From Escherichia coli (GTDB lineage Bacteria > Pseudomonadota > Gammaproteobacteria > Enterobacterales > Enterobacteriaceae), in assembly GCF_030013595.1 (NCBI RefSeq), contig NZ_CP122772.1: 64,000 nucleotides of DNA, one strand, 5' to 3'. Each line of letters opens with the position of its first letter. The first letter of the stretch is position 1. Shown piece after piece: positions 42,001 to 45,000 of this stretch. Made by a program: the position numbers.

Positions 42001-45000
42001 ATAAATATTATATGTGTGACGTCTATAATCTTCTTTTCCTCCTTTGAAGTAGAAGTAGGCGAAGATTCCTCCTGTGAATGTATAATGTGTATTCATGTCA
42101 AGATCACCATTCCACACCAACATATTAATATGGGCATTATCATCATTGCATGGATTAATTTTATGCGAAATGGTTACTGATTCATTATTTTCTAATAATG
42201 AGTCAATGAAATTCCACCTAGCAGAAGAGGATGAATGAAAAAAAGGAAAATTTTCTTTGTAAGAAAAACCTCGAGCGGTAAAATTACAAGCATTAATGTA
42301 GCATAGTTTAGGCTTATAGATAACTTCATCTATTTCTCTATAATCTGTTATTTTTTGAAAAAAACCATATACCATCTTACGATATTGTAAAGGAGTATAA
42401 CCAGTATGTTTTTTAAACTCTCTAGTAAATGTTTGCTGGGAGTCATATAGAAGTCGTTCAGAAACAGAATTAATAGATAATTTTGTTAGTCGCAAGAGAA
42501 CAGCTGCGCGTGTAACTCGACGCAATTGAATATATTCGCCTAATGTCTTTCCCATATGTTTTTTGAATAATAATTGTAAATACCTTCTGCTGTATCCTGA
42601 GTATCTTACAAGCTTATTTATGTCTACACGCACAGATTCAATATTATCCTCTATATATTTGAGTATGGCGTTAATGGTCATTCTTTGAAGCATTTGATAC
42701 TCCACGCATTCACTTTAACAAGAAGATGTACACTAAAAAAATAAACGGTCTAAGTGATTAGCTAAATGTGCACTATTGTGCCTTGGTGCACATTTAGCTA
42801 ATAATGTATCTTTGTTTTTTGTATCTCATAGTAAATATGAGATCACGAGAATGAAAAATGCAACTATGGCATATGTAAATGAGTGGTGTTCTGCAAATTT
42901 TTAATCTACACTTAGATGGTTTTTGATTCAGTATCGGAATAATCGAAGATACATAAGAAAATGCAAAATTGTTTGAGAGGGTTTATGAAAAAGAGAATCA
43001 ATGTAATGAAAAAAGATTCGACATCTACAAGAATATGTCTACGAGCATTAGAAAACGAGGAATTTGAACCATGTTTTCAACCAATAGTTTCTGCATCAGA
43101 GTAACCAATATTCGGTGCCGAAATATTGGTTCGTTGGAATTTACTAACGGGAGAGAGCCGCTCAATTTATTAAACAAACTGAATATACGGGGGTATTGGT
43201 GCCTATAACGCAAAAGGTATTGTATAAAGCAGTGAGTAAACTTCTTGGTATGAGTGGACGTTTTCCGCAGACATTCCGATTAAACGTTAATGTTACACCT
43301 GCATTGCTGAAAGATACACATTTTGTACAAATGTGTAAGTTATTAAGTGATGAAAAGGGGGCGCGTTTAATGCTGGAATTAACAGAGCAACAACCATTTA
43401 CCATTTCTTACAGACAACCAGCCCCTTGACTTGGAGCAAGTGAATTATTTACTACGCATTGGTGCGGATTATTTTCAGGGATATTATTTGGAAAGCCAAT
43501 GTGTCCAAACACATTCATCAGCAAATATTTTTGACATCTAGCTACAGGGCCACTGGTATCGACCCTGCAACACTGTCGTTGGTGGCAGTAATGTCCTCAG
43601 TTGCCTAAAGTGATCAGTCAGGAAGATATCCCTTCTATAGCTGATAGCTTATACTTCCAGTACAGACAGGACTGTTTCGTAATCTGGCTCGGTAGTGATT
43701 TCATTCACTAATTCACTAAAAAGCACATTGTCATTTTCATCAATGATTATGATTGCACGAGCAGCTAAACCTTTCAGTGGACCATCAGCAATTTTAACAC
43801 CGTAGGTTTGTAGAAACTCTATATTACGAAAAGTGGAAAGAGTTATTATGTTATTCAGATTTTCTGTATCACAGAAACGAGATTGAGCGAATGGAAGATC
43901 AGCAGAAATACACAACACAACAGTATTGTCTATTTCTGTTGCCAGTTTGTTAAATCTACGCACTGATGCAGCACAAACATCGGTATCAATACTCGGGAAT
44001 ATATTTAGTACTTTGCGTTTTCCTACAAACTGATTGAGGGTAATGTCAGATAAATCCTTTGCCACGAGAGTAAAGGACTGTGCTTTACTACCCATTTGCG
44101 GAATAGAATTGGCGACCATCGTCGGGGTACCCTGAAAACTAACTATCTGCAACATAATAATGTCCTTTTTACATTGAATTAACTTGATCGATAGGAATTT
44201 AAATCCCCAAAAGACTAAAAAAGCACCACAAAACGGATGTTTCTTCAACACCCCTTGTGCACCATATGAGCGGAAACGACTATTAAACAGGATGACACTG
44301 ATTGATACAGGGTATGAATGGCGGTTTTTTGCTCCGTTTCCGGTAAAATGGACGCAACTTCCCCTCTGCGGCTCTCAGCCGCACACCTGCTGTCGTGCCA
44401 GTCGCTCATGCATCAGGACCAGCTCTGCCAGTCGGTAACCCCGCTTCAGCCCCGTAAAACGCATCTGACTTCCGCACAGAATGCACTTCAGCGGGTCAAC
44501 CTTCAGTAACCTCTGATACATCCCTCTCCACCTGATTTGCATCGCCGTTTTTCTCACCGTCTCCGTTATGACGTACACAACTTCTTCCAGTAAGCGGCGC
44601 TTCACCGGACTCAGGAAACCGTAGTACCTCACCATACGGAACCCCTTATCTGCTACATGCCAGGAGAACCTTTCCATGAACTCATCTCCACTCATCAACA
44701 GGTATTCTTCCCGTTTTGTACGGTGACTGTTGTAACGCAGACCGATTTCATCCTGACCGGCATAATGCTCCAGCCGACTCATCGGCACCGGTGGCTTTTT
44801 CAGGTAAGAGCCGAAGTACACCGCCACATGTGTGGCGTTATCCATCACCCTGGATATGTTGACATTCCAGCCGCGGCGGTAATGCGTGTCCAGGAAGCGA
44901 TTCCAGTCCCGTTTGCTGTTTCCTTCCACTGCCAGTTCATTTAACGTAACATTTTTTACCCGCCCCCAGGAGGGACTCTCATTGTGATTCTGCCATGAAC

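Follow-up and report, generated by a model that had tools for sequence, protein, structure and literature searches.

In chromosomal Escherichia coli Tpx (p20 scavengase; 1QXH, 3HVV and 3HVS), the conserved residues include a peroxidatic Cys61, a resolving Cys95, a non-catalytic Cys82 and Arg133, and the gene is located between ycjG and tyrR. By the chemistry known for the family, Cys61 would attack H2O2 or an alkyl hydroperoxide and be converted to a sulfenic acid, which would then form an intramolecular disulfide with Cys95 that thioredoxin would re-reduce. On F18 plasmids, tpx appears in the gene list of pW1316-2 (PMC11965690), the sole mention retrieved in a literature search that returned no study on the F18-plasmid gene. 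The Tpx proteins of pW1316-2 (NZ_CP080237) and of the UMNF18 plasmid (NZ_AGTD01000003) are 99-100% identical to the one described here, and are encoded in the same fed-AraC-EAL-tpx block. A more distant, F18-like sister block is found in draft E. coli genomes (P0003; L002-L007), with the same gene order and orientation and a Tpx that is 89% identical to ours and shares its lineage-specific residues. The other relevant system is IS91 (IS91 family, HUH Y2 transposase), the one-ended transposition of which carries along DNA lying beyond terIS, and for which CTTG beside oriIS is the insertion target (PMC13181058).

The stretch of DNA analysed (64,000 nucleotides, hereafter the window) belongs to a porcine F18/alpha-hemolysin IncF plasmid, and an identical plasmid is represented by CP100064. 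It carries a tpx that is an additional, plasmid-borne copy apart from the chromosomal locus (Table 1): the mpaA-ycjG-tpx-tyrR context of the chromosomal gene is missing, and the window gene instead lies in the F18 fimbrial block, between an EAL pseudogene and a copy of IS91 that has replaced its native promoter region. Plasmid locations are rare, with 72 plasmid versus 5409 chromosomal tpx sites in 5426 complete E. coli genomes, as expected from the first-pass annotation of this DNA, which described tpx as normally chromosomal.

Table 1. Features of the tpx region in the window (positions are those of the whole window)
Feature	Position	Strand	Remarks
F18 fimbrial operon (fedA, usher, chaperone, fedE, fedF)	35410..40861	+	ORFs; fed annotations in CP100064 and pW1316-2
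Rob/SoxS/MarA-type AraC-family regulator, intact, 271 aa	41878..42693	-	HTH_18/HTH_AraC; best NCBIfam match RobA, residues 9-257
EAL-domain pseudogene (c-di-GMP phosphodiesterase type), converges on tpx	42985..43537	+	tblastn; weak Pfam EAL match
tpx CDS, atypical 2-Cys peroxiredoxin (thiol peroxidase), intact	43649..44155	-	168 codons + stop
Surviving native tpx leader, 31 bp	44156..44186	-	Ends in IS91 target CTTG, 44183-44186 (+)
Shine-Dalgarno sequence AAGGA	44163..44167	-	7 nt upstream of tpx ATG; read in sequence
Truncated IS91: oriIS end and 3' tnpA	44187..44940	-	99-100% identity to other window IS91 copies from 44187
Sequence just beyond terIS in plasmids with complete IS91, runs into hlyD	44941..45944	.	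100% match to L001, 14617-15678
hlyCABD alpha-hemolysin operon, terIS side of IS91	45945..53193	-	ORFs; hlyC, hlyA, hlyB and hlyD annotated in CP100064

The identity of the gene was established by profile matches and sequence alignment. The protein matched the curated equivalog NCBIfam NF001808 (thiol peroxidase) at 252.7 bits (cut-off 123) over residues 4-167 of 168, and Pfam Redoxin at 3.7e-32 (111.6 bits), and its residues 3-167 aligned without gaps to E. coli Tpx 1QXH (E 8e-88). All of P54, T58, C61, C82, C95 and R133 are retained: the PxxxTxxC active-site motif reads PSIDTDVC (P54, T58 and C61 all present), and the resolving C95 (in SRFCDTE) and the active-site R133 (in LAARAII) are found at the expected positions, so that the equivalog match, the peroxidatic-cysteine motif, Cys95 and Arg133 all place the protein in the Tpx subfamily. 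The first-pass annotation had drawn the gene as 43649-44186; a tpx is indeed present, but IS91 begins immediately after position 44186 and the gene ends at 44155. A longer listed ORF (43649..44251, minus strand) opens at an upstream GTG, while Tpx homology begins at the ATG at 44155, and the Shine-Dalgarno sequence preceding this codon is kept in the aligned upstream regions of the F18, sister-block and K-12 genes. The gene is not a pseudogene; its 168 codons are intact, the catalytic residues are retained and dN/dS is approximately 0.14. In existing records, tpx of F18 plasmids is already annotated as 'tpx: thiol peroxidase' by PGAP and in GenBank.

The age of tpx on the plasmid could be gauged from the sister block, which (in L002) is collinear with window positions 35945-44188 at 84-87% DNA identity, the homology stopping at the IS91 junction. 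Its order is a fed-like operon, the AraC regulator, the EAL gene and tpx, without IS91; an IS3-family element is instead located approximately 600 bp upstream of tpx, the GC content of which is lower still (35%). The EAL gene of the sister block is intact, and tblastn with its 259-aa protein as query shows that the window copy is dead, with a stop at codon 39, several frameshifts and approximately residues 142-226 missing. For tpx, the block-to-block dS is 0.40 and omega approximately 0.14, compared to 0.40 and 0.125 for the regulator, 0.57 and 0.11 for the usher, and 0.30 and 0.23 for fedF. Since its divergence equals that of the fimbrial genes and falls within their range, tpx is, judged by these distances, as old as the block, and the collinearity indicates that the fed operon, the regulator, the EAL gene and tpx are one conserved block. 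After its capture, tpx co-diverged with the F18 block under purifying selection and a strong A+T drift.

The IS91 copy upstream is a remnant of 754 bp, oriented like tpx, and both its truncation and the 31 bp between its ori end and the tpx start codon are as first described. The terminal sequence starting at 44187 (ATCGATAGGAATTTAAATCCCC) recurs in five further copies across the window, and the six copies are flanked by CTTG (three), GTTC, CTCG and GTCC, of which CTTG and GTTC are the targets expected of IS91. Past hlyCABD, the next IS91-like element is at 56615. A tnpA remnant ORF spans 44375..45016, with transposase homology reaching 44940 and matches to Y2_Tnp and NF033538 (IS91 transposase) covering profile positions 202-355 of 356. 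A 1075-bp internal deletion relative to CP100064 removed orf121, terIS and the 5' portion of tnpA, and the copy is consequently not a complete, autonomous element (orf121-tnpA plus terIS). Identity with IS91-free F18 plasmids breaks off in the alignment exactly at 44186/44187. Altogether 48 PLSDB records contained this tpx, 25 of them with native sequence upstream and free of IS91 there, and 23 with the IS91 junction, the Tpx protein being 100% identical between the two groups; NZ_CP031548 and CP100064 exemplify the junction; the native upstream region is common to the IS91-free F18 plasmids and the sister block, and the native 760 bp were searched for in the window and are absent. As in described IS91/ISCR one-ended units, the window holds a genuine oriIS end with CTTG, several IS91 copies and an IS91-associated hly operon, but in contrast to the cargo of such units tpx is found on the target (oriIS) side and is older than the insertion, and it is therefore a neighbour and target of IS91. 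IS91 arrived later: in a single lineage, by now about half of the sequenced F18 plasmids, its oriIS end joined the CTTG located 31 bp ahead of the tpx ATG, and the native upstream region was replaced; about half of the other F18 plasmids, including pW1316-2, retain this region. Taken as a whole, it is highly probable that the window carries an intact second tpx which is Escherichia-derived, has long travelled with the F18 block, and was joined upstream by IS91 only later. The chief value of this result is corrective: in E. coli of pig edema disease and post-weaning diarrhoea, tpx belongs to the F18 block as a stable part under selection and is not an IS91 acquisition.

Expression of tpx from the window plasmid is uncertain because the IS91 junction replaced all sequence upstream of -31. 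Neither a consensus scan nor relaxed scans found a sigma-70-like promoter directed toward tpx, whether within the oriIS end of IS91 or in the 31 bp of remaining leader, a result of low weight since the known functional K-12 promoter escaped the same scans. It is possible, if on balance doubtful, that tpx in the junction lineage is intact but effectively silent, a neutral hitchhiker which lost its promoter at -31 and has not yet decayed. Along with the loss of the native 760 bp and the negative scans, this would be in line with terminator-like hairpins in the oriIS end on the same strand (44253-44235 and 44370-44353), and with a single, identical and recent junction in 23/23 junction plasmids, owing to which the absence of decay is uninformative about selection. 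Against silence stand the insensitivity of the promoter scans, the outward promoters documented at the oriIS end of the related ISCR1 (PMC6218425), and the co-orientation of tnpA and the hly operon with tpx, by which read-through would be possible. The interruption by IS91 in half of the plasmids, without visible consequence, speaks against an essential role of this expression for the plasmid, and the approximately even split of F18 plasmids by IS91 upstream of tpx constitutes a natural experiment on the importance of this expression. Post-transcriptional control was also considered, as the sRNA ArcZ represses the chromosomal tpx mRNA by pairing at +10 to +26 (PMC11331407). With the ArcZ sequence located in K-12, the seed duplexes had predicted energies of -14.4 (K-12), -11.2 (F18) and -7.9 kcal/mol (sister block); shuffled controls gave -12.2 +/- 2.8 kcal/mol, against which these values are uninformative about an escape of the plasmid tpx from ArcZ.

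The plasmid gene had been described as clearly diverged from E. coli Tpx and lower in GC, and this holds in numbers: identity to K-12 tpx is 81.0% at the amino-acid and 78.2% at the nucleotide level (both proteins being 168 aa), and GC content is 38.3% (GC3 30.8%) versus 51.3% (GC3 52.7%). Phylogenetic placement, proposed earlier as a check, put the gene inside Escherichia on a long branch along which GC-to-AT changes predominate. The trees, built by neighbour-joining on just 166-168 positions, grouped the F18 and sister-block tpx within the Escherichia clade (bootstrap 91-95% for protein, 99% for LogDet distances on codon positions 1+2) without fixing the branch point inside the genus. The plasmid branch is approximately 4-6 times longer than that of chromosomal E. 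coli tpx, with 78 substitutions compared to 18 on the K-12 branch; 61 changes were GC>AT and 14 AT>GC. Homology to the K-12 locus is limited to the region from -65 through the stop codon, and the ancestor was an Escherichia-type chromosomal tpx, of which a fragment from about -65 to the stop codon was captured long ago by the F18 block, in the AT-rich accessory tail of this series of fed operon, Rob-like AraC regulator, EAL gene and tpx. The gene illustrates cleanly how a housekeeping gene, once transferred as a copy from the host genus to a plasmid, has evolved there several times faster, with a strong GC-to-AT bias and the catalytic core kept.

Alternatively, an unsampled low-GC enterobacterial donor could have supplied tpx along with the entire AT-rich block, in place of an Escherichia chromosome followed by AT drift. 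The GC content of tpx resembles that of its neighbours (31% for the regulator, 37% for the EAL remnant), which favours such a donor, and no source genome is known for the F18 block. We nevertheless regard it as unlikely, as tpx stays in the Escherichia clade (95-99% bootstrap) even under LogDet distances, which correct for composition, the plasmid Tpx shares Escherichia-specific residues, STFRN, NSIPQ and DGPLKGL among them, and none of 100,044 species representatives was closer to it than Escherichia, the closest five (80-82% identity) all belonging to this genus. In addition, an independent pig-plasmid tpx is at an earlier stage of the same GC-to-AT trend. This copy, on a pRHB02-C19_3-type plasmid (CP058065, from a pig faecal E. 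coli), is likewise Escherichia-derived, A+T-shifted and carried by a porcine IncF plasmid, but represents a separate capture of far more recent date (its protein is 94.6% identical to that of K-12), in the form of a 712-bp chromosomal fragment with its own upstream sequence, IS3 and ISEc18 flanks, and no homology to the fimbrial block. The tpx genes of pBone4_4 and of E. hormaechei IncHI2 plasmids were examined as possible relatives and rejected; they are unrelated, lying in whole chromosomal chunks (mpaA-ycjG-tpx-tyrR).

If the Escherichia-derived plasmid gene is active, it would supply F18 strains with a second thiol peroxidase beside the chromosomal Tpx. The conserved catalytic residues and the purifying selection make extra protection against oxidative stress plausible, both the activity of the enzyme and an advantage to its host being inferred; for the window plasmid the idea is weaker because IS91 replaced everything upstream of -31. 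Some caution also comes from the protein, in which sites invariant among enterobacterial Tpx are replaced beside both catalytic cysteines (G59D, G96D, A97T and G99N; position 59 is Gly in 87/89 relatives and Asp here), changes that could alter or lower activity. These replacements invite the thought that Tpx may have moved from bulk peroxide scavenging to a new role, perhaps sensing peroxide or relaying redox signals together with the neighbouring Rob-like regulator so as to tune F18 fimbrial expression or colonisation. The lineage-specific Asp residues at otherwise invariant glycines flank both catalytic cysteines, the adjacent regulator is of the SoxS/MarA/Rob stress-response type, and tpx has been kept with the regulator and fimbrial genes, under constraint, across a dS of 0.4. 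However, most of the replacements (G>D, A>T, V>I, Q>K) are of the types that AT mutation pressure would produce, a pressure manifest at codon positions 1 and 2 as 35 GC>AT versus 6 AT>GC changes, and tpx is missing from related fimbrial clusters that have a regulator of this family: relatives of the block regulator (45-50% identity) adjoin F18-type chaperone-usher operons, and in their loci an EAL gene was found once, a DsbA-like gene once and tpx never. We thus hold a new role to be very unlikely, and the same low odds attach to the broader notion that the F18 island might contain a small conserved sensory module in which the Rob/SoxS-type regulator, the EAL c-di-GMP phosphodiesterase and a specialised Tpx would link oxidative signals in the gut to fimbrial expression or colonisation; if this were true, repeated capture of tpx by plasmids of pig E. 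coli (F18, sister block and pRHB02) would signify selection for such a role in the porcine gut. As it stands, the plasmid tpx is ordinary biology, leaving knowledge of peroxiredoxins and of IS91 unchanged.

That tpx reached the plasmid as IS91-adjacent DNA, through IS91-mediated capture or one-ended transposition, as the first-pass annotation had suggested from its position just 31 bp from an IS91 end, co-oriented with tnpA, on a plasmid where six IS91-family ends indicate that IS91 has been active, is scarcely credible in view of the identical tpx in 25 F18 plasmid records without IS91 at the site, its presence at the same place in the IS91-free sister block, a divergence between blocks equal to that of the fimbrial genes, and its location beside oriIS and the CTTG target, when one-ended transposition moves DNA beyond terIS (PMC13181058). 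The hlyCABD operon, on the terIS side, is plausibly IS91-associated cargo.

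The minus-strand ORF at 43649..44251 encloses a 168-codon thiol peroxidase gene (see table), the ATG of which, at 44155, lies 7 nt 3' of an AAGGA ribosome-binding site. A longer GTG-initiated reading of the ORF was rejected, as it enters IS91 and lacks homology support; the first-pass annotation had rightly placed tpx near the ori end of IS91, while its end coordinate of 44186 was wrong. The protein scored 252.7 bits against the NCBIfam thiol peroxidase equivalog model (cut-off 123), also matched Pfam Redoxin, and from residue 3 to residue 167 gave a gap-free alignment with the solved E. 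coli Tpx structure 1QXH (E 8e-88). Of the peroxiredoxin motif it has P54 and T58, together with the peroxidatic C61; the Tpx-specific resolving C95, the non-catalytic C82 and R133 are present too. On all sequence criteria tried it is a Tpx subfamily member, and the kept catalytic and motif residues, in an intact ORF, show an intact gene and not the pseudogene that had been named as the observation that would count against it. As annotated, the gene is diverged and lower in GC: identity to K-12 tpx was 81.0% (protein) and 78.2% (DNA), and GC was 38.3% (GC3 30.8%) versus 51.3% (GC3 52.7%) in K-12. It is an extra plasmid-borne copy and not the orthologue seated at the native ycjG-tpx-tyrR locus; chromosomal tpx is still present in strains with the F18-type gene, so the latter is a second copy.

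Coordinates of tpx and associated features
Feature	Sequence	Position	Strand	Remark
AraC-family regulator gene	window	41878-42693	-	Rob-like architecture, N-terminal SoxS/MarA-type HTH
EAL-domain pseudogene	window	42985-43537	+	between regulator and tpx
tpx CDS	window	43649-44155	-	168 codons, ATG at 44155
Segment upstream of fedA	window	34455-34862		copy in pW1316-2
Region upstream of hlyC	window	53665-54825		copy in pW1316-2
Bounded stretch	window	44187-56615		oriIS and CTTG at 44187; GTCC and IS91-like oriIS at 56616
IS91 variant	window	56616-58443		1828 bp, 89% identical to IS91
IS91	window	58444-~60273		head to tail with the variant
Diverged F18-like block	L002 (draft E. coli)	8001-16507		sister block
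tpx upstream DNA joined to two window segments	L009 (pW1316-2)	2768-4326
Second plasmid tpx	L012 (pRHB02-C19_3)	4001-4507
Chromosomal fragment with tpx	L012 (pRHB02-C19_3)	3833-4544		712 bp, own upstream included

The window, 99.5-100% identical overall to many pig plasmids, belongs to an IncF virulence plasmid of porcine E. coli on which the F18 fimbrial operon is found together with alpha-hemolysin. Of 5426 complete E. coli genomes, 33 had F18-type tpx, in every case on a pig-derived plasmid. PGAP already labels the gene tpx in dozens of GenBank records, and it is in the gene list of pW1316-2, with no analysis given (PMC11965690); our literature search found no functional study of the plasmid F18 tpx. 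New here are its place in a conserved F18 block, its probable Escherichia origin, its accelerated, AT-biased evolution, and the recognition of IS91 as a later insertion into the tpx leader.

A Tpx 89% identical to that of the window (P0003) is encoded in a sister block of draft E. coli genomes (L002-L007, for example GCA_028598365.1), where an F18-like chaperone-usher operon, an AraC-type regulator, an EAL gene and tpx follow in the same order. The sister block is collinear with window 35945-44188 (84-87% DNA identity), and its homology to the window ends exactly at the IS91 junction. Its tpx upstream is homologous to that of IS91-free F18 plasmids, and the IS91-free arrangement is therefore ancestral. 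Between the blocks, dS was 0.40 for both tpx and the regulator, 0.30 for fedF and 0.57 for the usher; with a value equal to that of the regulator and between those of fedF and the usher, tpx is as old as the F18 block. None of the 5426 complete genomes of E. coli that were searched has the sister block; a TibC-like glycosyltransferase and a 1398-aa autotransporter are encoded near it. Relatives of the AraC-family regulator (L015-L020; 45-50% identity) have a GyrI-like C-terminal domain and, on contigs of E. coli and Salmonella, are neighbours of F18-type chaperone-usher operons; a CSS-EAL gene occurs in one of these clusters, and in another a DsbA-like gene lies within the operon.

The IS91 terminus ATCGATAGGAATTTAAATCCCC, of which the window holds five further copies, starts at 44187 with CTTG just before it, 31 bp from the tpx ATG. 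In the IS91 layout of a 2026 study (terIS with cleavage site CTCG, orf121, tnpA, oriIS), a CTTG tetranucleotide beside oriIS is the essential target (PMC13181058); this makes the tpx-facing end the ori end, in line with what had been proposed. This IS91 copy is also truncated, as described, to 754 bp, a 1075-bp deletion relative to plasmid CP100064 having taken the 5' part of tnpA, orf121 and terIS. The further suggestion, that tpx was carried in as IS91-adjacent cargo, did not hold. This tpx is present in 48 PLSDB plasmid records. In 25 of them the upstream is native, without IS91 there, the plasmid of a wild-boar O139:H1 strain, pW1316-2, being one example; the IS91 junction is the same in all of the remaining 23. 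The two groups do not differ in their Tpx protein (100% identity). In IS91-free plasmids, ~760 bp that are missing from the window continue past the same CAAG. One-ended transposition of IS91 reflects failed termination at terIS, with DNA beyond terIS being carried (PMC13181058); tpx is on the oriIS/target side and the hlyCABD operon on the terIS side. Taken with the IS91-free records and the sister block, this means that IS91 came to the side of tpx and did not import it. The hemolysin operon, not tpx, is the plausible product of IS91 one-ended transposition, given its position on the terIS side of this copy within a bounded stretch. Further along, two IS91-family elements stand head to tail, the terIS of the variant (...CTACTCG) abutting the oriIS (ATCGATAGG) of IS91 in what looks like a ter-ori junction. 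In pW1316-2, tpx upstream DNA is joined to copies of the hlyC- and fedA-upstream segments; rearrangement of the F18 and hly regions has therefore differed between the IS91-free and window plasmid lineages.

In a search of 100,044 species (one genome per species), the top five matches to the plasmid Tpx were all Escherichia (80-82% identity), followed by Enterobacter and others at no more than 77%, and no donor closer than Escherichia was found. Phylogenetic placement, which the first-pass annotation had put forward as a check, paired the F18 and sister tpx in neighbour-joining trees (100% bootstrap) and set the pair inside the Escherichia clade, with 91-95% bootstrap from protein distances and 99% from LogDet distances, which are corrected for base composition, at codon positions 1 and 2. 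The gene thus seems to be of Escherichia origin, placed to genus level only. Only the stretch between about -65 and the stop codon has a homologous counterpart on the K-12 chromosome, so the captured fragment was short. Outgroup-polarised substitutions numbered 78 on the plasmid branch versus 18 on the K-12 branch; the 78 included 61 GC-to-AT and 14 AT-to-GC changes (35 versus 6 at codon positions 1 and 2). This bias accounts for most unusual Tpx replacements (G>D, A>T, V>I, Q>K); among these, G59D, G96D, A97T, G99N and V103I fall at sites invariant in other enterobacterial Tpx proteins.

The dN/dS of tpx was 0.12-0.14 between the F18 and sister blocks and 0.10-0.15 against K-12, similar to that of the neighbouring fimbrial genes and regulator (0.09 to 0.24). 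The EAL gene, intact in the sister block (259 aa), is disrupted in the window by frameshifts, by a premature stop (codon 39) and by loss of 85 codons, which took away the catalytic core (~residues 142-226). Low tpx dN/dS beside this dead neighbour shows that tpx was retained as a coding gene through most of its block history. The plasmid Tpx has every residue the Tpx cycle needs and would most likely work as follows: by Tpx family knowledge, Cys61 would reduce peroxide and become a sulfenic acid, which would form an intramolecular disulfide with Cys95; reduction by thioredoxin would then ready the enzyme for the next round. Expression is the weak point of this functional view for the window plasmid. 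The IS91 junction took all tpx upstream DNA beyond -31, including half of the ~65 bp still alignable with the chromosomal tpx upstream. No convincing promoter toward tpx was found in the IS91 end by a crude scan that also misses the working K-12 promoter. Transcription might enter tpx by read-through from the co-oriented tnpA remnant or hly operon, or start at a putative outward promoter in the IS91 end of the type described for ISCR1 (PMC6218425). That the regulator, the EAL protein and a specialised Tpx form a small redox/c-di-GMP sensory module for the fimbriae is very improbable.

Other plasmids carry tpx as well. Plasmid pRHB02-C19_3 (CP058065.1, pig faecal E. coli) has an independent copy on an Escherichia chromosomal fragment (90.6% identity to K-12) between IS3 and ISEc18; capture of tpx by porcine IncF plasmids has therefore happened repeatedly. 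Its Tpx is 94.6% identical to that of K-12, and the gene is already at 46% GC, with 21 GC-to-AT versus 2 AT-to-GC changes on its branch. Two large plasmids, one an E. hormaechei IncHI2 plasmid (L013, NZ_AP025892.1) and the other pBone4_4 (L011, CP054253.1), carry whole chromosomal segments (mppA/mpaA-ycjG-tpx-tyrR-ycjF), so chromosomal-type plasmid tpx occurs elsewhere; considered as relatives of the F18 copy, these two were rejected as unrelated. On short contigs from metagenome and Logan assemblies, two diverged Escherichia-type Tpx proteins (P0012 and P0116) also have G59D (DTDIC), and P0012 is a mosaic, its first 60 N-terminal residues diverged and the remainder nearly identical to K-12.
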